Below are positions 1,923 through 31,916 of a stretch of 64,000 nucleotides of DNA, piece after piece. Made by a program: the position numbers and the translations under genes. Below the pieces are notes generated by a model. It saw only the letters and a list, made by a program, of their open reading frames with translations. It made no database searches and was not told where the DNA came from. Source of the DNA: a virus (Duplodnaviria > Caudoviricetes); the IMG/VR virus record IMGVR_UViG_3300046512_000357, positions 1,299 to 65,298 of that record, one strand, 5' to 3'. Each line of letters begins with the position of its first letter. The first letter of the stretch is position 1.

Positions 1923-2044
1923 CGCGTCACCCAGTAGTACAGGTTCACCACTCCGGCCGCCAGGTAGAGCAGGGCGATCAGTTGGAACGCGCGGCGCCGG
2001 CAGTGCGGGGCGCTGGGCATCGGGGCTTGCAGGTCTTCGCTCAT
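1919..2044 (-). CDS. Small membrane peptide (41 aa)
   Basis: MSEDLQAPMPSAPHCRRRAFQLIALLYLAAGVVNLYYWVTR; AAGGA upstream; stop overlaps the GTG of the next gene. Confidence 0.5.
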   Translation of the reverse strand: MSEDLQAPMPSAPHCRRRAFQLIALLYLAAGVVNLYYWVTR

Positions 2045-2058
2045 GTTATTATTTCCTT

Positions 2059-2703: not shown

Positions 2704-2720
2704 CTGCTCAGGGCACCGGC

Positions 2721-4283: not shown

Positions 4284-5882
4284 CCGCTTTTTAGGACTGC
4301 CCTCGCTAATTTCTTGGCGCACCAAGGTGCGCTGCCCTCCGACTAAGGGCCCCACAACTTTTCCTTCCATCGCTTCCAGCAGTTGTGCCGCCCGGTTGTA
4401 GCCGATCCGCAGGTGGCGCTGGATCAGCGATATCGACGCGCGCTGGTTGGTGCGCACCACGGTGACGGCCTGTTCATACAGCGGGTCGCTGGCGCTGCCG
4501 TCGCCGGCGGGCACATCGGCGCTGGCGCCAAGCTCCACGGTCTTGCCGCCGAAGGTGATGGTTGCGGTGGCGCCATCCTTGGCGAGGCTGTTGTTCAGCC
4601 GGCGCGCGGCGGCTAGCGCGCTGCCGTCGTCGCCGACCACGCGCTGCTTGCGCACCGGCTCGTCACCCTGAGCGGCGCGCTGCGTTGGCTCTACAATCTC
4701 CACGGCCGCCACCAACATCATCTGCGCGGAGGTCGAGCCGGTCGGAAAGGAATTCGCTAGCACGAGCGCTGCCTTGATAGCGCCTTCACTACTGACAGCC
4801 ATCTGCTCACTCACGCGGTCGATGTAGGGCTGCACCGTTTGCTCATACAGCTCGGCCAGCACGTCGCGGTGCATGGCACGGACCTTGTACAATTCGGCCG
4901 ACAGGCCCACCGCGCGTTCAAGTTTCTGCTGGCTCACGCCGGCCGGCGCCGCTTTTTGCTCGCCAGGCTCGCTCACCGTCGCCTCTCCGCCCAGCGCCTC
5001 GACCAGATCGCCCATCAGCTTCGCCAGCTCGCCGGACATCAGCGCGAAGTCGCCGTCGAAACGCTCGTCGTCGTTCCGGATCGAGCCGCGCGAATCTTCC
5101 GTCAAAACGTCCAGCATCTTCACCGACTTGATGGCCAGGGTCTCGTCCAGCACGAAGCTGATTTTGCTATCCCACGTCATGGCCAGGCGCGTGCACTGCT
5201 TGCCGGCCTTGATGTGTTCCGCGACCTCGGCGCCGCCCAGCGTGTGGCGTTTGTACTGCACCTGAGCCTTGCTCTCACCGGTGGCGCGTAGCGTGGCGTC
5301 CTGGTCGACCGTGAAACCGGCCGGCGCTTCATCCGTTTGCAGCCATTCTGTCATCACGCCCACCGGCGAGCGCTGCACGCGCAGGCTTTCCAGCGGCATG
5401 CGATCCACCGCCTTCAGCAGCAGCTTGATCACGTTGTCCGCCTTCGACGGGCTAGCCGCGTCGACCACCAGCCAACCGTTTTTCGGATCGATCCAGGCGA
5501 GGGTAGTGCTCGCGATCGAGAACGCGCGCGGCAGCAGTTCGTCCGCGACGCGCTCCTTCAGTTCTTTCATCGCCTTCTTGCCTGGCGCGAAGCCCTGGGC
5601 CTCTTCCATCTCGGCGGCGCGCGCGACGGCCACCTGATTGATCACTGCCGGAGGCAGCAGCTTCTTCTCGCTCTGCAGCTTGATCAGGTACTGGCCGTTC
5701 ACGGCGTGCACCAGCTGGCCGGCGGCGCGCGGCGGCGCCCAGCCTTCGCGCAGCAGCTCGTTGCTGCTGGCCGGCGTGAAGGTGTTCACGGAAAGGGCGC
5801 TGGCCAGCGCTTCGGCGGTCATCGTCCAGTTGCGCGGCAGGCGGTAAATTTGTAAATTTTTAAACATCGTCATTCCTATCAA
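4263..5882 (-). CDS. rdgC: Recombination-associated protein RdgC fused to a C-terminal FtsK gamma (winged-helix) domain
   Basis: MFKNLQIYRL...EKKLLP...KQCTRLAMTW...RFDGDFALM (RdgC); DPLYEQAV...ASISLIQRHLRIGYNRAAQLLEAME (FtsK gamma). Confidence 0.9.
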   Translation of the reverse strand: MIGMTMFKNLQIYRLPRNWTMTAEALASALSVNTFTPASSNELLREGWAPPRAAGQLVHAVNGQYLIKLQSEKKLLPPAVINQVAVARAAEMEEAQGFAPGKKAMKELKERVADELLPRAFSIASTTLAWIDPKNGWLVVDAASPSKADNVIKLLLKAVDRMPLESLRVQRSPVGVMTEWLQTDEAPAGFTVDQDATLRATGESKAQVQYKRHTLGGAEVAEHIKAGKQCTRLAMTWDSKISFVLDETLAIKSVKMLDVLTEDSRGSIRNDDERFDGDFALMSGELAKLMGDLVEALGGEATVSEPGEQKAAPAGVSQQKLERAVGLSAELYKVRAMHRDVLAELYEQTVQPYIDRVSEQMAVSSEGAIKAALVLANSFPTGSTSAQMMLVAAVEIVEPTQRAAQGDEPVRKQRVVGDDGSALAAARRLNNSLAKDGATATITFGGKTVELGASADVPAGDGSASDPLYEQAVTVVRTNQRASISLIQRHLRIGYNRAAQLLEAMEGKVVGPLVGGQRTLVRQEISEGSPKKRLPNEHG

Positions 5883-19765: not shown

Positions 19766-20053
19766 ATGAACACCACTAGTAACCGCAAGCCCAATCCCCG
19801 CTTGAACGTCGTCAAGGTGTATCTCGGCGACGAAGAGCAGGCCACCCTGCAAAGTCACTGCCACGCCAGCGACACCAGTATCAGCGCATTCCTGCGCCAG
19901 GCTGGTATCCGCATCGCGACAGCGCACCAGCAGATTACCCGCTTCCCCGGGCGCCAAGAAGGGGCTGGTGCAGGCCTGCACCGGGCCTTCTCGTTCCCAG
20001 GCCAGGGCGTACGTCGCGTGTCGCGCGGCGCGCTGCGCCCGATGCGTTCGTGA
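19766..20053 (+). CDS. Ribbon-helix-helix-like small protein
   Basis: VVKVYLGDEEQATLQSHC...SISAFLRQAG; AGGA RBS. Confidence 0.55.
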   Translation: MNTTSNRKPNPRLNVVKVYLGDEEQATLQSHCHASDTSISAFLRQAGIRIATAHQQITRFPGRQEGAGAGLHRAFSFPGQGVRRVSRGALRPMRS

Positions 20054-20102
20054 ATTGCTGAACCGCTGCGCTCCACTCGACGCATACAGAAAGGACGAAC
20101 CG

Positions 20103-20861
20103 ATGCATCACCTGATGATCGCTGACGTGCAGATTCGCACCGATGAACATGGCCGCTTCTCGCTGAACGATTTGCATAAGGCTGCCGGCGCTGAAGCGCG
20201 CCACCAGCCTGCGCAGTTCCTGCGGCTTGACGCCACCGGAGCACTGGTAGATGAGCTGGCCGAGGAAAATGGCGGTATGGGAAATCCCATAGTGACGATC
20301 AATGGCGGCCGCGCGCCGGGCACGTTCGTCAGCAAGGAGCTTGTCTACGCTTATGCAATGTGGATTAGCCCTAAATTCCATCTGCAGGTCATCCGCACCT
20401 TCGACGCGGTTACCAGTGACTCCGCGCAAGCAACGCGCAAGCCCAAGGCGACGAAGCCGCCGGTACTGGAGGCCGCCACGATGATGCCCGCCCTAGTGCG
20501 CGCGCTGCGCGCCTGCGGCATCGACAAGAACGCGGCGGCCATTGGCGCCAACCAGATCGCCACCGCGCAAACCGGCGTGAACCTGTTGGCCATGGCTGGC
20601 CACTCGCATCTGCCAACACCAACCCAGCAAATCTGCTACACGCCGACCGAGCTGGGCAAGCGCTTCTGCCAAAGCGCCATCACATTCAACCGCCGCCTTG
20701 CTGATGCTGGTTTGCAAGAGAACATCGGCGGGCACTGGGTCCCGACCGAAAAGGGCCGTAAGCACGCGGTCGTGCTGGACACCGGAAAAGCCCATAGCAG
20801 CGGCACGCCGATCCAGCAGGTGAAATGGATCGATTCCGTTTTGGCAGAAGTCGCTTTGTGA
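20103..20861 (+). CDS. KilA-N domain protein (antirepressor-like)
   Basis: IRTDEHGRFSLNDLHKAAG...GTFVSKELVYAYAMWISPKFHLQVIRTF; C-terminal PTELGK...PTEKG. Confidence 0.9.
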   Translation: MHHLMIADVQIRTDEHGRFSLNDLHKAAGAEARHQPAQFLRLDATGALVDELAEENGGMGNPIVTINGGRAPGTFVSKELVYAYAMWISPKFHLQVIRTFDAVTSDSAQATRKPKATKPPVLEAATMMPALVRALRACGIDKNAAAIGANQIATAQTGVNLLAMAGHSHLPTPTQQICYTPTELGKRFCQSAITFNRRLADAGLQENIGGHWVPTEKGRKHAVVLDTGKAHSSGTPIQQVKWIDSVLAEVAL

Positions 20862-20911
20862 ATCCGGGATGCCGCGCCCCGTTGCGCGCGGCGAAGAAGA
20901 TGGAGAACCGC

Positions 20912-21154
20912 ATGCCCCAAGCATCGCAAATTCAACCTGGCGCCGGCGCGGCGCTGCTCGATCACTTAATCGAGAAATTGCGCCTGAAAAACGACGCCGC
21001 CCTCGCGCGCGCTTTCGAAGTGGCGCCGCCAGTAATAAGCAAGATCCGCCACGACAAGCTGCCGTTCGGTGACAGCATGATCTTGAAGGCGCACGAGAAG
21101 TACAACTTCACCGTGCAGTCGATCCGCCAACTGCTGGCCGGCGAGGGCGCGTAA
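20912..21154 (+). CDS. Small HTH DNA-binding protein
   Basis: LLDHLIEKLRLKNDAALARAFEVAPPVISKIRH. Confidence 0.8.
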   Translation: MPQASQIQPGAGAALLDHLIEKLRLKNDAALARAFEVAPPVISKIRHDKLPFGDSMILKAHEKYNFTVQSIRQLLAGEGA

Positions 21155-21156
21155 CG

Positions 21157-21309
21157 ATGACGCAGCAGCAGCAGCACCAGCACCAGGCCGCCGAGGAAGT
21201 GCGGCCAATGGAAGTCGAACCGGCGCACGTCATGACGCGGGAAAAGCACAAGCAGCGCGAACACTACGAACGCATGCTGCGCGAATTGGAAAAAGAGCAG
21301 CAGAAATAG
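21157..21309 (+). CDS. Small hypothetical protein
   Basis: MTQQQQHQH...ELEKEQQK; in operon. Confidence 0.45.
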   Translation: MTQQQQHQHQAAEEVRPMEVEPAHVMTREKHKQREHYERMLRELEKEQQK

Positions 21310-21356
21310 AAAAGGCCGCGTTGGAGCGCGACCCGATCACCCATCAGAGGAATTAC

Positions 21357-21563
21357 ATGCCTACTATTTTACAGCAAGGACCGGCGCCAGCACAGACTGG
21401 CACGCCGGAGGAGAAAGTCACGCTCGCGGCCCGCGAATGGCGCGAAAAGGACCGTGAGCACATCGCGGAAAAGAACGCCGCCACAGGCGCTGCGGAGTAC
21501 CGCGCGCGCCGCAAGCTGCGCATGACCGTCGACCTGACCGACGGGAAGGCTGGCCAGCCATGA
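21357..21563 (+). CDS. Hypothetical phage protein
   Basis: GAGG RBS; coupled to the next gene. Confidence 0.55.
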   Translation: MPTILQQGPAPAQTGTPEEKVTLAAREWREKDREHIAEKNAATGAAEYRARRKLRMTVDLTDGKAGQP

Positions 21564-21892
21564 GGAAGCTCCCACACCCCACCAGCCTTGCGCACGCGAT
21601 GCTGCGCCAGCTCGCCGCCGGCCCCGGCACCTTCTATCAGATCTGCGAACTGCTCGAATTCGATATCGAAGACGACAAGGTCGAGACGGTCTGCCGTGCG
21701 CACTTCAGCGACCTCGTGGACGCTGGCCATGCTTACCTGGTCGACCTGACCTACCACGTCACTACCGCCGCGCGCGCCGCCATCGCGCCGCCGGCGCCGT
21801 ACGTCGGCCAGATTGCCGGCCCAGCTTATCGCGGCACGCCGCATCCGATGCCAGTCACCATTGCGCGCCGCGCAGCGGGAGCGCGGGCATGA
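21560..21892 (+). CDS. Hypothetical (winged-helix-like) phage protein
   Basis: ATGA overlaps on both sides. Confidence 0.6.
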   Translation: MRKLPHPTSLAHAMLRQLAAGPGTFYQICELLEFDIEDDKVETVCRAHFSDLVDAGHAYLVDLTYHVTTAARAAIAPPAPYVGQIAGPAYRGTPHPMPVTIARRAAGARA

Positions 21893-22542
21893 CCAAATCA
21901 CGCGGCATCAACGCACCCAAGCACAAATGGACGCCCGAGCAGGACGCCATCCTGCGCAACCAATATCCCGACATGCGCGCCGCCGACGTCGCCGCTGCAC
22001 TCGGCATTCGCCTGACATCCCTTTACGCGCGCGCCAAGAGGCTGGGCCTCACGAAGTCAGACGAGTTCAAGAACAGTTCGGCCTCCGGGCGCCTTGACGG
22101 CGTACGCGGATCGGCCACCCGATTTGCATCTGGACACGTGCCATGGACGAAAGGCCAGAAGGGTATCCGCCTCAGTCCAGACACGGAGTTCAAGAGGGGC
22201 GAGCGCCCTGTGAACTACATGGCAGTCGGCTCCGAGAAGCTGCACATGGGATATGTGTGGCTGAAGATTGCCGACGGCGGCTGGCCAGAGGCATGGAGAC
22301 CGAAGCATCACGTCATCTGGGAGCGCTCGCACGGCGCCGCACCGCCGGTAACGCACCTATTGTCGTTCCGCGACCGTGACCGCAATAACTTCGCACTCGA
22401 CAACCTTGAGCTGATCAGCAAGGCAGACTGGATGCGCCGTTATACGCGCCACAACCTGCCGAAAGAGATCGCTGATCTGATGGCCCTGCAAGGCGCACTC
22501 ACGCGCCAAATCAACAAACGGAGCAAAGCACATGAGCAATAA
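21889..22542 (+). CDS. HNH endonuclease-family protein
   Basis: WTPEQDAIL N-terminus; KHHVIWE...FRDRDRNNFALDNLELIS. Confidence 0.8.
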   Translation: MTKSRGINAPKHKWTPEQDAILRNQYPDMRAADVAAALGIRLTSLYARAKRLGLTKSDEFKNSSASGRLDGVRGSATRFASGHVPWTKGQKGIRLSPDTEFKRGERPVNYMAVGSEKLHMGYVWLKIADGGWPEAWRPKHHVIWERSHGAAPPVTHLLSFRDRDRNNFALDNLELISKADWMRRYTRHNLPKEIADLMALQGALTRQINKRSKAHEQ

Positions 22543-22777
22543 CAACATCGACGCACTTCGCGAACACCTGTTTGGCGCGCTGGCTGGTCTGAAGGACGGC
22601 TCGGTGGATATCGAGAAGGCCAAGGCCATCTCCGGCGTGGCGCAAGTGATCATCAATACTGCGAAGGTCGAGGTCGAATACGCCAAAGCTACCGGACAGG
22701 GCGGCAGCGAGTTCCTGGCGCCGAAGCCAGCGCTACCAGCTGGCATCACCGGCGTCACCCAACATCGGATTCGCTGA
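22532..22777 (+). CDS. Conserved phage protein (HNH partner)
   Basis: LREHLF...DIEKAKAISGVAQVIINTAKVEV. Confidence 0.75.
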   Translation: MSNNNIDALREHLFGALAGLKDGSVDIEKAKAISGVAQVIINTAKVEVEYAKATGQGGSEFLAPKPALPAGITGVTQHRIR

Positions 22778-22779
22778 CC

Positions 22780-23364
22780 ATGAGCGTGAAGCCAATTCAC
22801 GGGCTATCTCAGGTCCCCGAGTATCGAGCCTGGCAGACGATGCGCTTACGCTGCACGGAACCCGCAAACCCTGCATACGCGAACTACGAAGGCCGGGGTA
22901 TCGCCGTCTGCGATCGGTGGCTGAATTCTCCTGCGGCATTCATCGACGACATGGGGGCGAAGCCTACGCCCCAGCACGAGTTAGACCGTCGCGACAACAG
23001 CGCTGGCTACTCGCCGGAGAACTGTCGGTGGGTGACGCGCAGCGTCAATGATCGCAACCGCCGGTCGAACCGCATGGTCACCTACTCGGGAGAAACGCAT
23101 GCACTCGCGCATTGGTGCGAGCAGTTCGGCATTCGCCCTGACACGGCAAAGAAACGCCTCGATGCAGGCTGGACGCCAGAAGAAGCATTCACGATCCCGG
23201 CGCGCACCAAGGCTCTGAATGGCCAGGCAAAGCCGCTCAAGCACGAGTGCGTTACCTGCGGCGCCCTAACCACTGGTACACGCTGTCGTCCTTGCGAAAA
23301 CAAGGCACGCCCGGCGCGCGCCAACTTCGCGCACGAGCGTGAGATTGTGATGGTAGCTGCGTGA
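22780..23364 (+). CDS. HNH-like homing endonuclease-related protein
   Basis: YRAWQTMRLRC...YEGRGIAVCDRW...LDRRDNSAGYSPENCRWVT. Confidence 0.8.
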   Translation: MSVKPIHGLSQVPEYRAWQTMRLRCTEPANPAYANYEGRGIAVCDRWLNSPAAFIDDMGAKPTPQHELDRRDNSAGYSPENCRWVTRSVNDRNRRSNRMVTYSGETHALAHWCEQFGIRPDTAKKRLDAGWTPEEAFTIPARTKALNGQAKPLKHECVTCGALTTGTRCRPCENKARPARANFAHEREIVMVAA

Positions 23365-23368
23365 GGAA

Positions 23369-23674
23369 TTACGATTTTTCGCTCGAATGGTACATAGGGC
23401 CCCGCCATTGCGGGGTGTGTTTATCCACCTGTATCTCGAGTGCCTCTACGTCAATTATTCCGGCTTGGATTTTTGCGACGGTAAAACCTATCAAGTCAGT
23501 CGCGCCAACATCGCTCGCTACCGGTGCCCAGAAGTCATTGCGTCGAAGTATGAATCGGAGAGCGGGCGCGTGCGATGGATCGCCAGTGGTAATTTCCACA
23601 TTGGCAACATCATTCCAGACCGATATGTTGGCATGCCAGCGCTCGCCGGGTTCAACTTCCATTTCGTATTTCAT
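23369..23674 (-). CDS. Antisense moron, hypothetical protein
   Basis: Low GC; GGAG RBS; extended -10 TGaTAGTAT overlapping the ATG at 23707. Confidence 0.6.
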   Translation of the reverse strand: MKYEMEVEPGERWHANISVWNDVANVEITTGDPSHAPALRFILRRNDFWAPVASDVGATDLIGFTVAKIQAGIIDVEALEIQVDKHTPQWRGPMYHSSEKS

Positions 23675-23706
23675 AACATCTCCATTGCAAAAAAGAAAAT
23701 ACTATC

Positions 23707-24144
23707 ATGATCTACGACCTATCCCGCGCCGAGCGCCAGCACCGCGCCATCGCCAACGAAAAACCAGGCCCGGTCCTGCAATCGAAGCGCTGCGCCTGCG
23801 GTAAAGCTTCGCCGGCCAAAGTGCTTGCGCAGTACAAGAAGTGCCACGGCTGCCAACTCGCCGACCGCATCGCCACGCTTCAAGACGGCGATCTGGACAT
23901 CCTGCGCCACATGGTGGGCGCGACGCCACACCACCCGATGGTGCGCTGGGGCTTCCGCAACGAATACCTGGTGAACCGCCGCGATGCGGCAGCGCTGGCT
24001 CGCCTGGTCGCCGCTGGCTTCGCGCGCGCCGGCCGCCCGCTGCTCCAGCTGCAATACTTCCATGCCACTGATGTCGGTTGCCGTCTCGCTGGTCTGTCGG
24101 CGAAACGCGCAGCCGTGGCACTGTCGCTGGGAGCGCGACCATGA
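23707..24144 (+). CDS. Hypothetical phage protein
   Basis: CxC...CxxC N-terminus; LRHMVG...GFRN...YFHATDVG domain. Confidence 0.7.
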   Translation: MIYDLSRAERQHRAIANEKPGPVLQSKRCACGKASPAKVLAQYKKCHGCQLADRIATLQDGDLDILRHMVGATPHHPMVRWGFRNEYLVNRRDAAALARLVAAGFARAGRPLLQLQYFHATDVGCRLAGLSAKRAAVALSLGARP

Positions 24145-24197
24145 CGAGCCTCGTATCCGAACTGGCCGACGTCTGGCCACTGATGCATTGCTACAAA

Positions 24198-24458
24198 CTA
24201 GTCATTTGGTTCCGATTTGGAATGCGAGCCAATCCACTCCTGAGCGTACTGGAGCACGCCATTTATTGCTTCGGCCTCGGTCAGGTATCCCTCTCCATCA
24301 GGGCCCTGTTGGACCGTTTTCCCCAGTACTACTTCGCCCACATCTGGCCCCATTCCTTTTTGGATGCTGAATTCAGCAAAAAAGCGATCACGCGGGGTTT
24401 TGAATGGATTAATGAGGATTGCGTGGCCGCCGTAACGGTGGAAAGGGGGCTTGCTCAT
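24198..24458 (-). CDS. Antisense moron, hypothetical protein
   Basis: MSKPPFHRYGGHAI...TEAEAINGVLQYAQEWI; AGGA RBS; TGcTAATCT promoter. Confidence 0.6.
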   Translation of the reverse strand: MSKPPFHRYGGHAILINPFKTPRDRFFAEFSIQKGMGPDVGEVVLGKTVQQGPDGEGYLTEAEAINGVLQYAQEWIGSHSKSEPND

Positions 24459-24493
24459 GGGGATGTTCCTAGTGTGGAAAATGTGAGATTAGC

Positions 24494-25240
24494 ATGATTC
24501 ACTACCACGGCCTCCCAATCACTCCCGCGACCGCAGCCCTTCGGGCAATCAGCGGTGGTCATGCGTTTGTGTCGTTCCGGCATCCAGAACAGTTGACTCT
24601 TGCGTTGGAGGTGTCGCAGTCGTTCGCAGTCGACAACGGCGCCTTCTCCGCGTGGCGTAGCGGTAACCCTGTGACCGACTGGGAACTATATTACGACTGG
24701 GTGGCAGAACTGCATCGCTACCCAGGATTTGATTTTGCCGTCATCCCTGATGTCATTGATGGCAATGAGGCGGCAAATGACGCACTGCTGGCGGAATGGC
24801 CTTGGCGCGAGCACGCTCCACACATTGGGGCGCCTGTGTGGCACTTGCACGAGTCACTGGAACGTCTCGGCCGGTTGGTCGCTGCCTGGCCGCGCATTTG
24901 CCTTGGCAGCTCGGGTGAATTTGCGAAGATCGGCACGCCGGCCTGGTGGACCCGCATGGCGGAAGCCATGGACGTGATCTGCGACCGATCCGGCCGGCCT
25001 TGCGCCAAGATTCACGGCCTGCGCATGCTTGACCCGGCGGTATTCTCACGCTTCCCGTTTGCCTCGGCGGACAGCACCAACATTGGCCAGAATGTAGGCA
25101 TCGATTCGGCCTGGAAGGGCACCTACACGCCGCCGACCAAGGAGGCGCGGGCGGCGATTATGCGCGAGCGAATCGAATCGCATCAGGCGCTGACGTTCTG
25201 GCAGCGTGCGGCCGCGCCAATTCAGGAGGGGCTGTTTTGA
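24494..25240 (+). CDS. TGT/DpdA-like (guanine transglycosylase fold) phage protein
   Basis: FAVDNGAFSAW, AVIPDVI, PVWH, KIHGLRM, SADST resemble TGT-barrel motifs (DSGGF, PD, HxLG, SxDS). Confidence 0.6.
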   Translation: MIHYHGLPITPATAALRAISGGHAFVSFRHPEQLTLALEVSQSFAVDNGAFSAWRSGNPVTDWELYYDWVAELHRYPGFDFAVIPDVIDGNEAANDALLAEWPWREHAPHIGAPVWHLHESLERLGRLVAAWPRICLGSSGEFAKIGTPAWWTRMAEAMDVICDRSGRPCAKIHGLRMLDPAVFSRFPFASADSTNIGQNVGIDSAWKGTYTPPTKEARAAIMRERIESHQALTFWQRAAAPIQEGLF

Positions 25241-25250
25241 TGACATTTCG

Positions 25251-25520
25251 TTACAGGAGTTTCAGAGCTTGCGCGGCTGTAATTGCAGTGCTGACAGCTG
25301 AAATTAGCGCCCCTGCAGCTGCGGCAATGCCTGCGACCATCGTCCATTTGGCAGAACGCTGCGCGGCCTCCGCCGCGATTCTGGCTGCCTCACTTGCGGT
25401 CGCCGATGAGTCGGCTGCGTTCTTGACCATCTCTTCAATTGCATCCGCAGTCCGGATGGATGCCTTAGCTTTTTCCTTCTGCAGTATCTCTGCCATCGGG
25501 TCCCAGACTTCTCGCGTCAT
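25251..25520 (-). CDS. Antisense moron, coiled coil + C-terminal TM
   Basis: MTREVWDPMAE...KWTMVAGIAAAAGALISAV; AGGAG RBS; TGcTAGTAT promoter. Confidence 0.65.
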   Translation of the reverse strand: MTREVWDPMAEILQKEKAKASIRTADAIEEMVKNAADSSATASEAARIAAEAAQRSAKWTMVAGIAAAAGALISAVSTAITAAQALKLL

Positions 25521-25553
25521 TTCTGCTCCTAGTTTTAAAGAGGAAATACTAGC

Positions 25554-26249
25554 ATGATGCGCCGCACACCCATGAAGCCCAGCACCTTGCCCTTGAAGCG
25601 CACCGCGTTCGCGCGCGGTGAGCGCATCGAGGCCCGCGAGGTGACGAAGATCATCACCAAGGCTGCGCGCGAGAAGAAGCACAAATGCGCCGTCCGCACC
25701 TGCCGCGCCGACTTCGTCCGGCCGGCGCCATTCGTCACCTGGTGCTCGCCGGAGTGCGGAACCTTGCTGGCCATGGCGAAGCTGGAGAAGCAGAAGCGGG
25801 AGACGGCCACCGCCGAGCGCAAGGACCGTCAGCAGAAGCTGGCCAAGTTCAAGCGCAAGGCCGATCACGTGGCCGACTGCCAGAAAGCCTTCAACGCCTG
25901 GGTGCGGTTCCGTGACCGCAACGAGCCGTGCATCGATTGCGGCAAGTTCGCTAGCAGCGACGCGCTGACCGGGGGGGTATACGACGCCGGCCACTACCTG
26001 TCGCGTGGCAGCCATCCACACCTGCGGTTTGACGAGCGCAACGTGTTCAAGCAGCTGAAGGGCTGCAACCGGCCTGGCGGCACCACGGCGGCATCGTTCC
26101 GCGCCGGCATCGTCGCGCGCATCGGCCTGGCCGACGTGGAGGCGCTGGAGGCGGACAACGAGCCGCGCCATTACACGGTCGACCAGCTGATCGCCCTGAC
26201 CGCGCACTACAAACAAAAACTTAAAGAACTGAAAGCGGCCGCCGCCTGA
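25554..26249 (+). CDS. ninG: NinG (Rap) recombination endonuclease
   Basis: WCSPECG, QKAFNAWVRFRD..PCIDCG, YDAGHYLSRG, LRFDERNV. Confidence 0.92.
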   Translation: MMRRTPMKPSTLPLKRTAFARGERIEAREVTKIITKAAREKKHKCAVRTCRADFVRPAPFVTWCSPECGTLLAMAKLEKQKRETATAERKDRQQKLAKFKRKADHVADCQKAFNAWVRFRDRNEPCIDCGKFASSDALTGGVYDAGHYLSRGSHPHLRFDERNVFKQLKGCNRPGGTTAASFRAGIVARIGLADVEALEADNEPRHYTVDQLIALTAHYKQKLKELKAAAA

Positions 26250-26279
26250 TGGTCGGCCCATAACCTGAACGGAGAAGTA

Positions 26280-28910
26280 ATGAGCGCATTTAGCCCTGAA
26301 GAACAGAAACTGCTGGTGCAGGCCGAGTATGGCCAGTTCCTGCGCGAGAAAATCAAGCTGGCCCAGAAGAAGGGCTTCGACGTGCCGCTGGACCAGATCC
26401 ACCCGGGCCTCAAGCCGCACACGCGCGACATCGTGCGCTGGGCGCTCGCGGGCGGCCAGCGTGCCATCTTCGCGTCGTTCGGCCTGCACAAGACCAGCAC
26501 CAACCTGGAGGTGATGCGGCAGATCGGCATTAACCGGCCGGGCGGCATTCGCGGCATCGTGGCGCCGCTCGGCGTGCGCCAAGAGTTCTCCCGCGAGGTG
26601 GCGAAGCGCTTCACCGGTGACCAGGCCGTTGACCTGCGCTTCATCCGCTCCGACGCCGAGATTGACGACCCGGCAACCATCTACATGACGAACTACGAAT
26701 CGGTGCGCGAGGCCAAGGTCAACGTGACGAAGTGGCAGGCGTCCGGCCTGGATGAGGCCAGCGTGCTGCGCAGCTACGGCAGCAAGACGTATCAGGAGTT
26801 CCTACCGATGTTCGAGCCGGTCGAGTTCAAGTTCGTCTACACGGCCACGCCGAGCCCGAACCGCTTCAAGGAACTGATCCACTACGCCGGCTATCTGGGC
26901 GTGATGGACACTGGCCAAGCGCTGACCCGTTTCTTCCAGCGCGACAGTGAGAAGGCCGGCAACCTGACGCTGTACCCGCACAAGGAGCATGAATTTTGGC
27001 TTTGGGTGGCGAGCTGGGCGGTGTTCATCCAGCGCCCGAGCGATCTGGGTCATTCGGACGAGGGCTACGACCTGCCGCCGATCGAGGTCCGGTACCACGA
27101 GGTGCCGAGTAATTACGCGACGGCCGGCGCAGAGAAGAACGGCCAGGGCCTGCTGATCCCGAACGTGGCCATGGGCCTGTCGGCCGCCGCCGGCGAGAAG
27201 CGCAACAGCATGCCGGCGCGCGTGGTCAAGGTGGCCGAGATTATCGCGGCCGCGCCGGAAGATCACTTCGTCGTCTGGCACGACCTGGAAGATGAGCGCC
27301 ACGCCATTCAGGCGGCGATCCCGGCCGCCGTGAGCGTGTGGGGTACGCAGGATCTGGAAGAGCGGGAGCAGCGCATCGCCGACTTCAGCGACGGGAAGTT
27401 TCCGGTGCTGTCGACGAAGCCGATCATCGCCGGTTCCGGCTGCAATTTCCAGGTGCACTGCCATCGTGAGATTTTTGCCGGCATCGGTTTCAAATTTAAC
27501 GACTTCATCCAGGCCATTCACCGTGTCCAGCGCTTCCAGCAGAACCATCCGGTCATTATCGACATTGTGTACACGGAGGTCGAGCGCAAGGTGTTGGAGG
27601 ACCTGCAGGTGAAGTGGCAACAGCACGACGAGATGCAGGCCAAGATGGGCGAGATCATCCGCACCTACGGTCTGGACCAGCTATCGATGCAGGATTCGCT
27701 CGCGCGCACGATCGGCGTGCAGCGCCAGGTGGCCGTGGGCGAACACTTCACGGTTGCGCACAACGACTGCGTGCTTGAGGCGCTGGAGCAGCCTGATAAT
27801 TCCGTCGGCATGATCCTGACGTCGATCCCGTTCGCCAACCATTACGAATACAGCCCGAGCTACAACGACTTCGGCCACACGCAAGACAATGCGCAGTTCT
27901 GGCGCCAGATGGATTTCCTGACGCCGCAGCTGCTGCGCATCTTGCAGCCGGGCCGCATCTACGCCTGCCATGTGAAGGACCGGATCCTGTTCGGCAATGT
28001 CACGGGCGCCGGCGTGCCGACGGTCAGCCCGTTCCACGCCGAGGCGCTGTTCCACGGCCTGAATCACGGCTTCGACTATATGGGCATGATCACGGTGGTG
28101 ACTGACGTGGTGCGCGAGAACAACCAGACCTATCGCCTCGGCTATTCGGAGGTGTGCAAGGATGGCACGAAGATGGGCGTCGGCTCGCCGGAATACATCC
28201 TGCTGTTCCACAAGCCGCAGACCGACCGCGCGCGCGGCTACGCCGACACGCCGGTGACGAAAGCGAAGCCGCAATGCATGGGTGACGATGGCCTGCCGGT
28301 GGACTTTGACCGCACGCTGCCGCCGATTCCCGGCACCGGCTACAGCGTCGCGCGCTGGCAGGTCGATGCGCATGCCTTCTGGCGCTCCAGCGGCAATCGC
28401 TTGCTGGGCGCGGCCGAGCTGGCCAGCTACGGTCCGGCCAAGCTGGCGAAGATGTTCACCGAACTGTCGTTGGCCAACGTCTACGACTATGAGCTGCATG
28501 TGGGTACCGGCGAGCAGATGCTGGCGAACAAGTCGCTGCCGGCCACCTACATGAGCCTGGCGCCGGGCAGCAGCGATCCTATGGTCTGGCACGACATCGT
28601 GCGCATGAAGACACTGAACGGCGCTCAGGCCGCGCGCGCGGTCGAGAATCATGTTTGCCCATTCCAGATCGATATCGTGGACCGCCTGATCGGCCGCTAC
28701 ACGAACCCTGGCGACGTCGTCTACGACCCATTCCATGGCCTCGGCACGGTGGGCGTGCGCGCCGTGAAGCTGGGTCGCAAGGGGCGCGGCTCGGAACTGA
28801 ACGCCGCGTACTTCCGCGACCAGGTGCACTACCTGAAGGAGGCGGAGCGCGAGGCGACCATGCCGACGCTGTTCGACCTGGTGGCGCTGGACCAGGAGAA
28901 TGCATCGTGA
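26280..28910 (+). CDS. SNF2-like helicase fused to N6/N4 DNA methyltransferase
   Basis: FGLHKT, LDEAS, TATPSPN, GCNFQ, IQAIHRVQRF; MTase TSIPF, HVCPFQ, VYDPFHGLGT. Confidence 0.9.
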   Translation: MSAFSPEEQKLLVQAEYGQFLREKIKLAQKKGFDVPLDQIHPGLKPHTRDIVRWALAGGQRAIFASFGLHKTSTNLEVMRQIGINRPGGIRGIVAPLGVRQEFSREVAKRFTGDQAVDLRFIRSDAEIDDPATIYMTNYESVREAKVNVTKWQASGLDEASVLRSYGSKTYQEFLPMFEPVEFKFVYTATPSPNRFKELIHYAGYLGVMDTGQALTRFFQRDSEKAGNLTLYPHKEHEFWLWVASWAVFIQRPSDLGHSDEGYDLPPIEVRYHEVPSNYATAGAEKNGQGLLIPNVAMGLSAAAGEKRNSMPARVVKVAEIIAAAPEDHFVVWHDLEDERHAIQAAIPAAVSVWGTQDLEEREQRIADFSDGKFPVLSTKPIIAGSGCNFQVHCHREIFAGIGFKFNDFIQAIHRVQRFQQNHPVIIDIVYTEVERKVLEDLQVKWQQHDEMQAKMGEIIRTYGLDQLSMQDSLARTIGVQRQVAVGEHFTVAHNDCVLEALEQPDNSVGMILTSIPFANHYEYSPSYNDFGHTQDNAQFWRQMDFLTPQLLRILQPGRIYACHVKDRILFGNVTGAGVPTVSPFHAEALFHGLNHGFDYMGMITVVTDVVRENNQTYRLGYSEVCKDGTKMGVGSPEYILLFHKPQTDRARGYADTPVTKAKPQCMGDDGLPVDFDRTLPPIPGTGYSVARWQVDAHAFWRSSGNRLLGAAELASYGPAKLAKMFTELSLANVYDYELHVGTGEQMLANKSLPATYMSLAPGSSDPMVWHDIVRMKTLNGAQAARAVENHVCPFQIDIVDRLIGRYTNPGDVVYDPFHGLGTVGVRAVKLGRKGRGSELNAAYFRDQVHYLKEAEREATMPTLFDLVALDQENAS

Positions 28911-28918
28911 GGGGGCGA

Positions 28919-29179
28919 ATGAATCGCGACGAATGGCAACAACGCGCGCGCGAGTTGGCCCCGCGCGGGGCGGCGCTGCCGCAAGCGAAGCTGACGGACG
29001 AGGACGTCCTGTCAATTCGCGCAGCGCAGGTGGAGCGCGACGCCCAGCGGCAGCGGATCGCAGCCGAACTGAGCAACGCCGCGCTGGCGCGCCGCTTCGG
29101 TGTGCACGTCCGCACCGTCGAGAAGGTGCTGCAGCGCGATTCGTGGGCCCATCTGCTGCGCACGGAGGCTCGGCGATGA
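28919..29179 (+). CDS. HTH DNA-binding protein
   Basis: AKLTDEDVLSIR...NAALARRFGVHVRTVEKV. Confidence 0.7.
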   Translation: MNRDEWQQRARELAPRGAALPQAKLTDEDVLSIRAAQVERDAQRQRIAAELSNAALARRFGVHVRTVEKVLQRDSWAHLLRTEARR

Positions 29180-30126
29180 ATTACTTCGAGCACCACATTG
29201 GCGACTACGACAAGAACACCTCGCACCTCACCGCGTGCGAGGATGGCATCTATTGCAGGTTGATCCGGCGCTATCTGGACAAGGAAATTCCACTCGATCC
29301 GGATACTGATGAAATAAAACGCGTAGTCCGTGCACGCACCCGCGAAGAAAAAAAATCAGTTGATGCAGTTCTCAAAGAATTTTTTTATCTCGAGGCGGAT
29401 GGCTGGCACCACAAAACGTGCGATGAAATCATCGCCACATACCAAGCCGGCGAGCCGGAGCGCGAGGCTAAAAAGGCCAACGAGGAAACGCGTATGAAAC
29501 GGCATAGGGACGAGCGCGCAGGCCTGTTTGCACAGCTTACGGCGGGCGGCCGGCACGCTTCCTGGAACATCGGAATCAAGGAATTGCGGGCAATGGTGGC
29601 TACGTTGCAAGAGCCGGAAAACCCGGAACCAGTAACGCAACCTGTAACGGCACCTGCAACGCCTGCAACGGCTACCCAAACACCAATACCCACTACCCAT
29701 ACACCATATATAAAACCTTTGTCGGCGAAAACCGCCGACGAGCAGATGGACGGTGGCGAGAGCGTGGTCGCAGAACGGCGCACGAAGCGCCGGCCGTCGC
29801 CGGATGACGAGACGTGTGCTCGCTACTGCTTCGGGTTGGTCAAGCGCCTGGATGCCAGCGCGAAGCCGCCGAACTTCGAAGCATGGGGCAACGACGTCCG
29901 CCTGATGATCGAGCGGGACAAGCGCACCCATCGCGAGATCTGCGAGCTGTTCCTGTGGGCGAACAACGACAGCTTCTGGCAATCGAACATCCTCTCACCG
30001 GCCAAGCTGCGCGAGAAGTGGAATCAGCTGATCATCAAACGCGGCACGCCGCAGAAAGGAGCGGCACATGGAAACTTCGGCTCGCAAGATTACCGCGCAG
30101 GGGTTAGCGAAGATGGCAAGTTCTGA
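29176..30126 (+). CDS. Replication initiator, DUF1376/YdaU N-terminus + O-like C-terminus
   Basis: MNYFEHHIGDY...TSHLT...GIYCRL; WGNDVRLMIERD...FWQSNILSPAKLREKW. Confidence 0.88.
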   Translation: MNYFEHHIGDYDKNTSHLTACEDGIYCRLIRRYLDKEIPLDPDTDEIKRVVRARTREEKKSVDAVLKEFFYLEADGWHHKTCDEIIATYQAGEPEREAKKANEETRMKRHRDERAGLFAQLTAGGRHASWNIGIKELRAMVATLQEPENPEPVTQPVTAPATPATATQTPIPTTHTPYIKPLSAKTADEQMDGGESVVAERRTKRRPSPDDETCARYCFGLVKRLDASAKPPNFEAWGNDVRLMIERDKRTHREICELFLWANNDSFWQSNILSPAKLREKWNQLIIKRGTPQKGAAHGNFGSQDYRAGVSEDGKF

Positions 30127-30895
30127 CCGCCGTGCGCGCTACATGAGCGCCATCCTAGAGACCTGCCAGCAGCACGGCGAATACACATCGCTACTGCTGG
30201 CTGGTGGCTGGTCTGGCTGCGTGCAATGCGAGTACGCAGCCGAGAATGCCGCTGCGGCTGCCGCACAACACTCCTGGCAGGCAGAATTGCGTAGCCGGGC
30301 CTGGGATGCTCGGCTGGGCCGCGCGGCGATTCCTGAGCGCTTTGCGGACCGCCGGCTCGAAACGTACGTGCCGACCTGCCACGACGCCGAGAGGGCGCTG
30401 CGCATCGCCGCGCGCTACGCCGCGAACTTCGCCGCGGTGCGCAAAGCCGGCGCCTGCCTGATCTTCTGCGGCGACGTCGGCACCGGCAAGACGCACATGG
30501 CGATCGGCATCGCGCACTTGGTGCTGGAGCAGGGCGGTCAGCCGGTGTTCACGTCGGTGATGCGGGCGGTGCGGTCGGTCAAGGAGACCTACGCCAAGGG
30601 CAACAGCCGTACCGAGGCGCAGGCCATCGCCGACCTGGTCGATCCTGACCTGCTGATCCTCGACGAGGTCGGCGTCCAGCACGGCACCGACACCGAAAAG
30701 CTGGTGCTGTTCGAGATCATCAACGGGCGTTACGAAGCCGGCCGGCCGACGATCGTGATCAGCAACCTGGCGATCAAGGCGCTCGAGGAATACCTCGGCG
30801 CCCGGGCCTTCGATCGGTTGCGCGAGGGCGGCGGGCAGCTGGTGGTGTGCGACTGGGAGTCGTACCGCAGCCGGCGCGAAGGTGTGGCGGCATGA
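30068..30895 (+). CDS. DnaC/IstB-like helicase loader
   Basis: IPERF, GDVGTGKTH, LLILDEVG, TIVISN, FDRLRE. Confidence 0.92.
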   Translation: METSARKITAQGLAKMASSDRRARYMSAILETCQQHGEYTSLLLAGGWSGCVQCEYAAENAAAAAAQHSWQAELRSRAWDARLGRAAIPERFADRRLETYVPTCHDAERALRIAARYAANFAAVRKAGACLIFCGDVGTGKTHMAIGIAHLVLEQGGQPVFTSVMRAVRSVKETYAKGNSRTEAQAIADLVDPDLLILDEVGVQHGTDTEKLVLFEIINGRYEAGRPTIVISNLAIKALEEYLGARAFDRLREGGGQLVVCDWESYRSRREGVAA

Positions 30896-31302
30896 GCGGG
30901 CGCGACCGCTTTCTGCTGAACCCGCTGGACCTGATGGTCGGCAAGCAGCTGGTCGGCCAGGAGGAGGCCGACAAGACCGCGCTGCTGGTGCTGATCGCGC
31001 TGGACGCGGCGAAGCGCGGTGCCGCGCCGGGCGCGCTGGCCAACACGCTCACGGAGCACCTGTTGACCAGCGCTGCGATCTGGTCGCAGCAGGGAAATCG
31101 CCGGCTCTACGACAAGACGGTGGTGGCTTGGGGGCATCTGCGCAAGGCATGCGCGCGGCCGACGGCGCTGCTCGACTTGACCACGGGCGAGTACGCGGCG
31201 ATTCGGCTGGCGATCAGCTACTACGTCTGCGCGCTGCCGAAGCTTGAGGTAGGCGTGCTGGCGGCCGGCTACGAGAAAGCGTTGCGACAATTGCGCGTTT
31301 GA
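30892..31302 (+). CDS. Hypothetical phage protein
   Basis: ATGA overlap with the DnaC-like gene. Confidence 0.65.
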   Translation: MSGRDRFLLNPLDLMVGKQLVGQEEADKTALLVLIALDAAKRGAAPGALANTLTEHLLTSAAIWSQQGNRRLYDKTVVAWGHLRKACARPTALLDLTTGEYAAIRLAISYYVCALPKLEVGVLAAGYEKALRQLRV

Positions 31303-31379
31303 ACGAATTGCCACATCGACAGTCTAGCGCAACGGCAACAGCTGTGTTAACGTCCAGCCACACCTCTTGGAGTAGCGAA

Positions 31380-31916
31380 ATGGGCTTTGCCGACCGATAC
31401 CTGCACGCCGTCAACTCGTCCGATCTGCGCGACGATGAGCACCACCATGCGACCGATGCGCTGTGCGCGGCGGCGCTGGCCGACACAGCCGGCGCGGGCA
31501 TCGGTTCGTTGCTCTCGCGCGTGAAGTACGCCGATGGCACGCAGCACCAGCTGTTCGAATCCGGCAGCGCCAATTTGGCACAACTGCTGCGCATCTGGAC
31601 CGCGCGCGTGATCGAGAAGGGCCGCGAGCGCAAGTGGGTGCGCGAGGGCACCGCGTGGGATGCGCAGGCCGCCCAAGCGCTTTACCGCCGCGTCGCCGAG
31701 AGGTCGCTCGCGCATTGGTTGGACGGGAAATGCGAGGGGTGCTCGGGCAGCGGCAACACGGCAGACCGACGTATCTGCGTGCCTTGTAAGGGAACTGGTC
31801 GCGGCGAGATCGGTGGCGGAGGGTTCGAGCGCGAGAAGGCACTCGACATGGTGAGTGAGCTGGAAGGACTGCTCCACTCGCATAACGCCCGTGCTGCCAC
31901 TACACTGCGAGGGTAG
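31380..31916 (+). CDS. Late antiterminator Q-like protein
   Basis: WLDGKCEGCSGSG...CVPCKGTG zinc finger; last early gene before the late promoter. Confidence 0.7.
   Translation: MGFADRYLHAVNSSDLRDDEHHHATDALCAAALADTAGAGIGSLLSRVKYADGTQHQLFESGSANLAQLLRIWTARVIEKGRERKWVREGTAWDAQAAQALYRRVAERSLAHWLDGKCEGCSGSGNTADRRICVPCKGTGRGEIGGGGFEREKALDMVSELEGLLHSHNARAATTLRG

Follow-up and report, generated by a model that had tools for sequence, protein, structure and literature searches.

Operon-strand reading frames spanning antisense genes in a phage early operon are probably selected for openness and phase

The window analysed here, a stretch of 64,000 nt from the Caudoviricetes record IMGVR_UViG_3300046512_000357 (positions 1,299 to 65,298), carries on its + strand an early operon (19968..31916) that forms an unbroken chain of ORFs. 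Four of its genes frame the region studied: an HNH endonuclease gene (22780..23364; phrog_3377, E=2.4e-52), a 145-aa gene with homologues in five loci (gA, 23707..24144), a gene resembling queuine tRNA-ribosyltransferase (TGT-like, 24494..25240; phrog_887, E=1.3e-71; 110 homologous loci), and ninG, encoding a Rap-like junction endonuclease (25554..26249; PF05766, E=3e-45). Three small genes lie between them on the minus strand: m1 (23369..23674; 101 aa, GC 0.52) in the slot downstream of the HNH gene, the orphan m2 (24198..24458; 86 aa, GC 0.53) at the gA/TGT junction, and m3 (25251..25520; 89 aa), whose product has a C-terminal hydrophobic segment and is probably a tail-anchored membrane protein. 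Both m1 and m2 are JGI/IMG gene calls. Each of the three is spanned by an ORF on the operon strand, termed here a bridge: b1 (23387..23710) over m1, b2 (24141..24497) over m2, and b3 (25240..25557) over m3. All junction gaps in the operon are 30 nt or less, but only when b1–b3 are counted. The pipelines disagree over this locus: JGI/IMG calls m2, and Logan alone calls b2. The window is rich in long shadow ORFs, for example one of 443 aa antisense to ninG (25251..26582).

The initial annotation placed b2 and b3 across m2 and m3, overlapping the neighbouring stop and start codons, and these coordinates proved right. The ATG of b2 at 24141 overlaps the TGA of gA (24142-24144), and the frame remains open to the TGA at 24495-24497, which overlaps the ATG of the TGT-like gene at 24494, so that b2 has an ATGA at both ends. 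At the 5′ end of b3, an alternative start TTG at 25237 and the ATG at 25240 overlap the TGT stop (25238-25240; TGATG at 25238-25242), and the frame is open to the TGA at 25555-25557, within an ATGA with the ninG start codon at 25554. The stop of b1 likewise falls in an ATGA overlap, with the start of gA; as previously described, b1 lacks a 5′ coupling, its start lying 23 nt beyond the HNH stop (23364), though a second + ORF starting at GTG (23361..23804) is GTGA-coupled to that stop and also spans m1. The pairs b1/m1 and b2/m2 are codon-aligned antisense frames. The b3/m3 pair, correctly reported as not codon-aligned, is one in which the third codon positions coincide. Over m2 and m3 no + frame but that of the bridge is open, the others holding 3–4 stops.

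Too much weight had been put on the 3′ ATGA overlaps, since this motif is intrinsic to the downstream genes. Homologues of the TGT-like gene start with ATGA in 81 of 90 distinct loci and with NTGA in 88 of 90, ninG begins ATG-ATG, and gA begins ATG-ATC. The 3′ junctions of b2 and b3 read TAGCATGA and contain a stop in both non-gene frames, and 3′ coupling is therefore cheap and nearly automatic. The conserved junction also carries a Shine-Dalgarno sequence, and the downstream genes have Shine-Dalgarno sequences of their own.

Such sequences also precede the start codons of the minus-strand genes (GGAG at 5 nt for m1, AGGA at 8 nt for m2, AGGAG at 5 nt for m3). A composition classifier (CV AUC 0.88–0.92) scored the minus ORF above the bridge in all eight pairs, with 0.94 vs 0.83 for m1 and b1, 0.97 vs 0.67 for m2 and b2, and 0.87 vs 0.19 for m3 and b3. 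The base composition of the inserts is deviant (GC 0.52–0.57 vs 0.60–0.74 in the flanks), and the GC3 of m1–m3 is 0.54–0.57 vs 0.7–0.9 for the phage. There are no TTA, CTA or TCA codons in m1; m3 has neither Tyr nor His and only three Gln. A scan of all six small ORFs (m1–m3, b1–b3) against Pfam and PHROGs gave nothing above threshold, the best sub-threshold matches being m2 to DUF6566 (E=0.07) and m1 to NotI (E=0.0075). A weak positional homologue of m1 occurs in a related locus, L002, and m3 has an NCBI homologue annotated as 'hypothetical protein' (P0004). The protein homologue search with m2 recovered m2 alone, and a search of 1.84 billion representatives returned m2 itself and four long proteins, each matched in 5–12 short stretches and hence taken as repeat matches rather than homologues. 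Scans of viral contigs with m2 and with m3 yielded no relatives, and a DNA search of a phage collection gave only distant TGT matches at 68–76% identity. The single-sequence AF2 model of m2 (pLDDT 57, low confidence) offers a weak hint of a three-strand plus helix arrangement; the corresponding low-confidence model of b2 has a pLDDT of 41.5.

The left arm of the window holds two genes of a family of membrane proteins with two TM segments (2-TM family), both on the + strand. One of them, famB (3669..4283), had been cited as a gene without a bridge; this was confirmed and makes it an internal control, but the second, famA (2059..2703), lies antisense in the left minus-strand operon and is bridged. 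The minus-strand ORF over famA (2041..2724) has an ATGA at both ends and is coupled to gene 2721..3644 upstream and to ORF 1919..2044 downstream. None of the 27 Leu and 15 Ser codons of famA is TTA, CTA or TCA, the codons that would block a codon-aligned antisense frame, and five of the 19 Leu codons of famB are TTA or CTA.

Members of this family, as well as a DUF4145 gene (Pfam E=5.9e-11), are found antisense in the same operon slots of relatives. TTA, CTA and TCA are absent from 38 of 52 homology-found family genes (33 clusters at 50% identity), and the codon-aligned operon-strand frame is consequently open there for 214–631 codons and in most cases NTGA-coupled on both sides. Codon usage was analysed in 36 family genes ascertained by homology (HMM) in 31 loci, a match having been obtained in 60 of 401 genomes; 23 of these genes have none of the three codons and are spanned by an operon-strand frame. 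In the whole set CTA and TCA make up 39 of 831 CTN and TCN codons, against 686 A-ending codons of 2810 in the other four-fold families (p=2.5e-44). The bridged members contain 0 CTA or TCA in 549 CTN and TCN codons, while members with at least three blocking codons contain 34 in 153, in line with their A-ending background of 136/518 (p=0.34). Family members in convergent or co-directional contexts, such as famB, use TTA, CTA and TCA normally. All nine genes sandwiched between opposite-strand genes are bridged, compared with 7 of 13 having a confident co-directional neighbour (Fisher p=0.046), the contexts being called by a noisy home-made gene caller that mislabelled known genes in L017 (a YbcO shadow), L093 and L067. 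Nineteen of the 23 bridged genes are 3′-coupled and 15 are 5′-coupled; the same number, 15, are coupled at both ends (in 14/15 the 5′ overlap is NTGA). Nine further members from viral contigs are all bridged, seven of them with coupling at both ends. Single frames even cross two or three unrelated embedded genes, for 582 codons in L137 and 523 codons in L144. The comparative data (0/549 vs 34/153; 15/23 phase-locked), and not the window, thus give strong support to the claim of the initial annotation that stops are kept out of the operon-strand frame.

DUF4145 genes behave in a similar way. The two members with operon-strand genes on both sides have 0/29 (L002) and 0/30 (L153) blocking codons, and a third, in L154, has 0/41 in a mixed context with a + gene to its left and a weakly scored minus ORF to its right; three other members, one convergent, one co-directional and one of unclear context, have 7, 5 and 11, respectively. 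Bridging is not universal. Five 2-TM genes have one blocking codon and one has two, antisense genes are not spanned in the Pseudomonas loci L092 and L103 and the Nitrosomonas locus L088, and a family-agnostic survey, noisy and including high-GC shadows, detected spanning frames over 13 of 19 sandwiched genes outside the family.

The homologous cassettes also bear on the history of the inserts. In L002 the stop of a gA homologue (77% identity) overlaps the TGT start directly in a TTGA junction, and m2 is absent; because gA abuts TGT there, the ATG at 24141 in the window lies at the site of the ancestral TGT start. The contents of the m1–m3 slots differ among L002, L003, L032 and the window, and the antisense inserts seen in the matching slots of these three loci are all bridged, as are L003 585..1295, L003 2738..3025 and L005 482..1273. 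Inspection of homologous cassettes had been proposed as a check on frame conservation, and the m3 cassette of L032 passes this check: at 58% protein identity its bridge is open and doubly coupled, and all three indels are multiples of 3. Between L032 and the window the m3 frame is 57.8% identical (82.8 bits) and the + frame 53% (65.5 bits), in a substitution pattern that cannot separate the strands, as the third codon positions of m3 and b3 coincide.

From these results, an explanation that we consider rather probable may be put forward: m1, m2 and m3 are real small genes that settled backwards in an Oxalobacteraceae-type prophage, in slots of its translationally coupled early operon, and they are covered by bridges selected for openness and phase, likely for ribosome transit. 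A bridge would start at or near the stop of the upstream gene and end on the start of the downstream gene, with no conserved product, and selection would act on the absence of stop codons and on the correct phase. A codon-aligned antisense frame would impose no amino-acid cost on the embedded gene, which would only have to avoid TTA, CTA and TCA. Ribosomes on the polycistronic lytic mRNA would re-initiate and translate across the insert of 300–700 nt, sometimes longer, and such transit would maintain the coupling of transcription to translation and bring ribosomes to the following start codon. It would also leave no extended untranslated segment open to Rho (or RNases), so that the downstream genes would be expressed. 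What is observed is the anatomy, the avoidance of stops according to context, the locking of phase and bridges without constraint at the protein level; ribosome transit and protection from Rho are what these observations suggest to us.

The frame might also be selected and translated for a benefit other than Rho avoidance, namely protection from RNase E or RNase III on pairing with the transcript of the insert, occlusion of the insert's promoter or transcript in lytic growth, or ribosome delivery to weakly initiating genes. We regard this as rather unlikely; the comparative evidence is equal to that for transit with protection from Rho, none of it identifying the benefit, and the junction, with its Shine-Dalgarno sequence and a stop in each of the two remaining frames, is in keeping with a hand-over of ribosomes. 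Reports on noncontiguous operons and excludons, in the parts at hand, describe transcripts that overlap and are processed by RNase III (PMC11034616, PMC12288877). However, the downstream genes have their own Shine-Dalgarno sequences, and hand-over is not obviously required.

Another possibility, in our view quite unlikely, is that the bridges of the window are chance shadow ORFs and that the signal in the relatives concerns other, longer genes. Here much depends on the null. With flanks and phase fixed, the probability that the frame is open over m1, m2 and m3 is 0.72, 0.67 and 0.60 under phage codon usage, 1.0, 1.0 and 0.57 when the genes' own codons are permuted, and 0.11, 0.08 and 0.32 under uniform codon usage. 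The lack of Tyr and His and the low number of Gln in m3 remove, by frame logic, most possible bridge stops. The two blocked frames at the 3′ junctions, the ATGA motifs that belong to the neighbours, and the frequency of long shadow ORFs point the same way. The absence of m2 homologues and the missing 5′ coupling of b1 weaken the case for ribosome transit. Phage codon usage is, however, the wrong null for genes with the GC3 of m1–m3. Under a fuller null, combining the codon usage of eight non-bridged low-GC relatives with shuffled flanks and random phase, the probability of any bridge is 0.074, 0.014 and 0.14, and about 1.4e-4 for all three jointly. The checks suggested earlier give a mixed outcome: in the synonymous shuffle under phage usage the openness is expected by chance (0.6–0.7), and in the homologous cassette of L032 the bridge is kept. 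The window-only evidence depends on the null chosen and is weak, m1–m3 being short. Against chance stand the closed alternative + frames over m2 and m3, the frame kept in L032 and the bridging of all inserts in the slots of L002, L003 and L032. In the 2-TM family the frames are no mere shadow of codon bias: the codons that comparable genes use do not predict the openness, and the phase relation to the neighbours is present.

We find it distinctly improbable that the bridges are true protein-coding genes, forming antisense overlapping pairs in which one strand would supply a product to the lysogen and the opposite strand a product during lytic growth. The frames are indeed open, have start codons and are coupled as ordinary operon genes; b2 is called by one pipeline, b1 and b2 score well in the classifier, the gene caller preferred the bridge ORF in L131, L134, L144 and L149, and olg1/olg2 and gene 10 of the Pseudomonas phage Fc02 offer a precedent, as far as the text at hand goes (PMC9936078). 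In the 2-TM family, however, identity in the same columns is 27–40% in the membrane frame and only 11–25% in the bridge frame, and substitutions follow pos3 > pos1 > pos2 in the membrane frame, most falling at the first codon position of the bridge. Among the four first-found bridge ORFs, blastp matched 2 of 6 pairs (E 1e-21 and 5e-7), both where the membrane gene on the other strand encodes its conserved N-terminal part, while the membrane frame matched in all six at E 0.02 or better. None of 12 bridge or + ORFs scanned matches Pfam and none of seven matches PHROGs, the b2 model is poor, and one frame may run over two or three unrelated genes. Purifying selection on both proteins of a pair is not apparent in the family. 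Since the bridge translation is not conserved while the frame stays open and coupled, selection acts on openness, not on the product. The reverse reading, that the + ORFs are the only real genes (small ORFs of a nin region) and the minus-strand 'morons' their shadows, is highly improbable, for although real operon genes typically show ATGA coupling at both ends and at other loci the caller mistook shadows for genes (in L017 the ORF 2063..2596, across from a genuine YbcO gene; L093, L067), the family signals lie on the minus frames (DUF4145, as above; phrog_33632, E=4e-6), which are better conserved, non-bridged members exist with the + frame closed, and m1–m3 have correctly spaced Shine-Dalgarno sequences, the higher classifier scores in every pair and, for m2, the better AF2 model.

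Lambdoid nin regions contain ATGA-coupled small ORFs and morons; a classical moron has a promoter and a terminator of its own and is not known to require an ORF on the operon strand. The locus resembles these regions in lying around ninG, in its 4-nt overlaps of stop and start codons and in the lower GC of the inserts that separate its conserved genes. With morons m1–m3 share the deviant GC, and m2 also has flanking genes that abut in a relative (L002). A consensus scan, whose counts equal the shuffle expectation, detected no promoter on the minus strand and no terminator after m1, m2 or m3, the spacers being only 32–35 nt long; three minus-strand terminator-like matches lie outside the genes (23322-23304, 23319-23305 and 25703-25681).

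We found no paper in the literature describing this bridge arrangement. The closest case is the temperate Pseudomonas phage Fc02, in which olg1/olg2, opposite gene 10, likewise represent a lysogeny-expressed gene fully opposite a lytic early-operon ORF, in an arrangement noted as conserved (PMC9936078, from the text at hand). In that phage the two ORFs are each regarded as encoding a functional protein with exclusion activity, and the same portion of the paper contains no codon-avoidance or context analysis (PMC9936078); here the operon-strand ORF lacks protein conservation, covers unrelated genes and is phase-locked on both sides. Published work on antisense stop avoidance (frame -1; TTA, CTA, TCA) agrees, in the part available, in that antisense translation is not under negative selection, and its authors speculate that translation itself may matter; that part favours codon optimisation for many cases and does not consider operon context, neighbour coupling or gene orientation. 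Codon optimisation is excluded here because non-embedded members and other A-ending codons behave normally. As in noncontiguous operons and excludons, an operon transcript would run over an opposite-strand gene; the accounts of those systems, in the sections at hand, treat transcript overlap and mutual repression and mention no maintained operon-strand frame (PMC11034616, PMC7154746, PMC12288877). Leader peptides and uORFs that block Rho-dependent termination provide the likeness in mechanism, the act of translation and not the peptide being protective (bioRxiv 2022.06.01.494293, PMC12360218); according to the available portions of these sources they are short and located at the 5′ end of the transcript, whereas the bridges, which would protect in this way, span 100–630 codons within the transcript and lie opposite a functional gene.

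If bridges are indeed kept open for ribosome transit, this would give a testable function to some long antisense ORFs with stop avoidance, debated for decades, would explain how lysogeny-expressed cargo can sit backwards in lytic operons without polarity, and would define a class of ORFs selected for being translated and not for their product. More tentatively, and with slightly less than even confidence, a general design rule may be proposed: backward genes in coupled phage operons would be synonymously recoded and phase-locked, so that ribosomes read through and make a throw-away polypeptide. Translation itself would be the function, protecting the lytic message against Rho and against silencing where the foreign DNA is low in GC. 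In practice, as pipelines disagree over such loci, the combination of zero TTA, CTA and TCA codons with NTGA on both sides could serve to recognise embedded genes and an uninterrupted operon in sequence data. Were the general rule true, antisense stop avoidance would be a genomic signature of genes inside an active polycistronic message.

The window derives from a provirus record, and the closest relatives of its TGT-like gene lie on contigs of Janthinobacterium, Duganella and other Oxalobacteraceae. Hosts of this and related prophages are bacteria of the Janthinobacterium/Duganella type from the environment. The early operon (19968-31916, + strand) includes the genes for an HNH endonuclease (22780..23364), gA (23707..24144), the TGT-like protein (24494..25240; phrog_887, E=1.3e-71) and NinG (25554..26249; PF05766, E=3e-45), all on the + strand. 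Slots between these genes hold three minus-strand inserts, m1 (23369..23674), m2 (24198..24458) and m3 (25251..25520), with a GC content of 0.52-0.57 vs 0.60-0.74 in their flanks. When the sequence was re-read, the + strand ORFs reported in the initial annotation to bridge the inserts (b1, b2 and b3 across m1, m2 and m3, respectively) were present exactly where it had placed them. Provided that b1-b3 are included, ORFs follow one another on the + strand in a single 12-kb chain whose junction gaps are no more than 30 nt. A GC-rich hairpin with a 7-bp stem (6 G-C pairs) and a T-rich tail was observed at 23399-23416 (+), 12 nt into b1 and within the 3' end of m1. On the + strand it resembles a terminator, and ribosomes translating b1 would melt it. 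Terminator-like sites are no more numerous in this region than expected from shuffled sequence.

Neither Pfam nor PHROG gave a significant match to any of the small ORFs m1-m3 and b1-b3, and public gene calls conflict, with m1 and m2 called by JGI/IMG and b2 by Logan. Several lines of evidence point to the minus ORFs as the genuine genes. Each of m1, m2 and m3 has a Shine-Dalgarno sequence 5-8 nt ahead of its ATG. A classifier of amino-acid composition, trained to separate 516 long ORFs from the open segments antisense to them (AUC 0.88-0.92 in cross-validation), gave the minus ORF a higher score than the bridge in 8/8 pairs (m1 0.94 vs 0.83, m2 0.97 vs 0.67, m3 0.87 vs 0.19). The homologue of m3 in the related prophage L032 gave 82.8 bits in the minus frame vs 65.5 bits in the + frame, and an NCBI annotation exists for a homologue of the m3 minus frame. 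For the orphan m2, the single-sequence AF2 pLDDT was 57 vs 41.5 for b2, both low, and this predicted difference is a weak hint in the same direction. A further minus ORF (25251-26582, 443 codons), an ordinary shadow ORF of high-GC DNA, covers the entire ninG in antisense and runs together with m3, so that a gene caller choosing the longest ORF would misplace the start of m3.

Synonymous shuffling of m1, m2 and m3 with flanks and phase held fixed gave a result that, under the criterion set in the initial annotation, is to be expected by chance. The probability of an open frame for m1, m2 and m3, respectively, was 0.72, 0.67 and 0.60 with phage codon usage, 1.0, 1.0 and 0.57 with each gene's own codons permuted, 0.11, 0.08 and 0.32 with uniform usage, and 0.40, 0.31 and 0.35 with the pooled usage of the inserts. 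Since the GC3 of the inserts (0.54-0.57) is unlike that of the phage genes (0.70-0.90), a fuller null was run using the codon usage of 8 non-bridged low-GC relatives, shuffled flanks and random phase. It gave a probability of any bridge of 0.074 for m1, 0.014 for m2 and 0.14 for m3, and of ~1.4e-4 for all three together. The evidence from the window alone is thus suggestive, not decisive.

The ATGA overlaps at the 3' ends belong to the downstream genes rather than to the bridges: TGT homologues, ninG and gA themselves start with ATGA; among TGT homologues from 90 distinct loci, 81 start with ATGA and 88 with NTGA. The 3' junctions of both b2 and b3 read TAGCATGA, which places a stop in both non-gene frames. 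Ahead of downstream operon genes we observed the motif AAAGGAAAT, followed by a few bases and TA(G/T)CATGA (window 23695-23710, 24483-24497 and 25541-25557; loci L002, L017, L032, L122-L128 and L140 of relatives). It consists of a Shine-Dalgarno sequence and a block in which one frame carries the start codon and the two others carry stops (TAG, TGA). Upstream ORFs in those two frames therefore terminate at the start codon, and an upstream ORF in frame with the gene continues into it. Read from the opposite strand, these bases give TGnTAGTAT, which is similar to an extended -10 element and might drive the antisense gene. At the 5' end, the ATG of b2 occupies the position of the TGT start in L002, where m2 is absent and gA adjoins TGT via a TTGA junction.

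Other antisense genes occupy the same slots in the related prophages L002, L032 and L003, and each is bridged. In L002, the slot between TGT and ninG holds a DUF4145 gene (Pfam E=5.9e-11) under a bridge that starts with TTG (3744..4439), overlapping the TGT stop as TTGA and ninG as ATGA, and an m1-like gene has a bridge at 2226..2573 with ATGA at both ends. As for conservation in homologous cassettes, the bridge of the m3 cassette is retained in L032, where protein identity is 58% and the three indels measure 12, 24 and 3 nt; three more minus genes of L032 are all spanned, as are both antisense genes of L003. No operon-strand spanning frame was found for the Pseudomonas/Nitrosomonas antisense genes near TGT (L092 1077-1358, L103 2263-2724, L088 2381-2854), and bridging may be restricted to particular lineages or operon types. 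Separately, ninG (window 25554-25643; L002 4436-4525) and the YbcO-type nuclease gene of L032 (4046-4135; PF07102, E=8.7e-25) are nearly identical over their first ~30 codons and then diverge, which looks like a mosaic joint inside a gene, adjoining the antisense slot.

Four of the same-slot inserts form one family of ~200-aa proteins with two transmembrane segments (2-TM), mutually homologous in the minus frame; one of them (L032 732..1337) matches phrog_33632 (E=4e-6). Two members, famA and famB, lie on the + strand in the left, minus-strand arm of the window and provide internal controls. famA (2059..2703) has zero TTA, CTA or TCA codons, which block the opposite frame, among 27 Leu and 15 Ser, and its bridge, the minus ORF 2041..2724, has ATGA at both ends within a coupled chain running from 3644 down to 343. 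For famB (3669..4283), the absence of a bridge noted in the initial annotation was confirmed: 5 of its 19 Leu codons are TTA/CTA, so that host and phage evidently tolerate these codons. The left arm (1689-3644, -) is a chain of minus ORFs overlapping by 4 nt (2721..3644, 2041..2724, 1919..2044, 1689..1922, 343..1692), two of which are very short (41 and 77 aa) and are candidate genes or further bridges.

Further 2-TM members were gathered by homology only. In viral contigs, 9 new genes were found, with the codon-aligned antisense frame open in 9/9 and NTGA-coupled at both ends in 7/9. Among 401 genomes of the bacterial family holding locus L082, 60 carried the 2-TM family, and the 31 loci fetched contained 36 genes. 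In 23 of the 36 there was no TTA, CTA or TCA at all, with spanning frames of 221-631 codons; the remaining 13 had 1, 1, 1, 1, 1, 2, 3, 5, 6, 7, 13, 14 and 16 such codons. Over all 36 genes, CTA+TCA made up 39/831 CTN+TCN codons vs 686/2810 A-ending codons in other four-fold families (p=2.5e-44), and TTA:TTG was 32:200 vs 734:478 for other A/G codon pairs. For the 23 bridged genes the counts were 0/549 vs 427/1823 (p=2.9e-55), and for the 7 genes with at least 3 blocking codons 34/153 vs 136/518 (p=0.34). As called by a home-made, noisy gene caller with an automatic neighbour rule, all 9 genes with opposite-strand genes on both sides were bridged vs 7/13 with a confident co-directional neighbour (Fisher p=0.046), and genes rich in blocking codons lay in convergent or co-directional contexts. 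Coupling was found at the 3' end of 19 of the 23 bridged genes, at the 5' end of 15 (14 by NTGA overlap) and at both ends of 15. Altogether, 38/52 2-TM genes, in 33 clusters at 50% identity, are bridged. Some bridged genes have same-strand neighbours and may be parts of antisense cassettes in which one long frame covers several genes, e.g. in L137 and L129. Single operon-strand frames of 523-631 codons were seen to span two or three successive genes of the opposite strand, at ~50% GC (L137 1306-3051, 582 codons; L129 904-2796, 631 codons; L144 613-2181; L148 1228-2907).

The same 401 genomes held 5 DUF4145 homologues besides that of L002. One with + genes on both sides (L153) has blocking codons at 0/30 Leu+Ser, and one in a mixed context (L154; + gene to the left and, to the right, a minus ORF of weak score) at 0/41; the others have 7 (convergent), 5 (co-directional) and 11 (context-ambiguous). 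At the sequence level, these comparisons show that operon-strand stops have been purged where a gene sits backwards in the operon and, for the most part, only there.

Among 13 viral-contig 2-TM members, no pair of which exceeds 40% identity, the 30 most similar pairs were 27-40% identical in the membrane frame vs 11-25% in the bridge frame over the same columns, and substitutions in the membrane frame followed the order pos3 > pos1 > pos2. Both results indicate that the embedded gene is the protein under selection. The bridge appears to be selected only for openness. Its frame is locked to the stop and start codons of the neighbours, and its translation is not conserved. Use of the codon-aligned frame costs little: TTA, CTA and TCA are the only codons to avoid, and all three have synonyms. 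The m3 bridge uses another frame, in which stops need Tyr, His or Gln codons, few of which occur in m3.

Full-text literature searches found no description of operon-strand ORFs maintained across antisense-embedded genes. Among the nearest known work is the Fc02 antisense overlap (PMC9936078); the other nearest published work describes stop-codon avoidance without protein-level selection and offers no operon-context explanation in its abstract and Discussion. The phenomena involved belong to known kinds, namely avoidance of stop codons on the antisense strand on the one hand and translational coupling with polarity on the other. Rho is described as targeting nascent RNA that is not under translation and as suppressing antisense transcripts (PMC5909445, PMC11551753).

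The 2-TM family, with its weak phrog_33632 match, is widespread (window 2059-2703 and 3669-4283; L122-L152), often with 2-4 copies per prophage region, e.g. three in 4 kb (G263 C7), and we speculate that it may serve prophages as a membrane protein of exclusion or defence. The initial annotation had suggested that the + frames may be kept open so that ribosomes traverse the inserts, translational coupling is preserved and Rho-dependent polarity is avoided. The comparative evidence supports its core, that the frames are kept open, and leaves ribosome transit and Rho as the proposed mechanism. We infer that ribosomes would cross each insert via its bridge, and that this crossing would avert polarity on the TGT-like gene, ninG and later genes.
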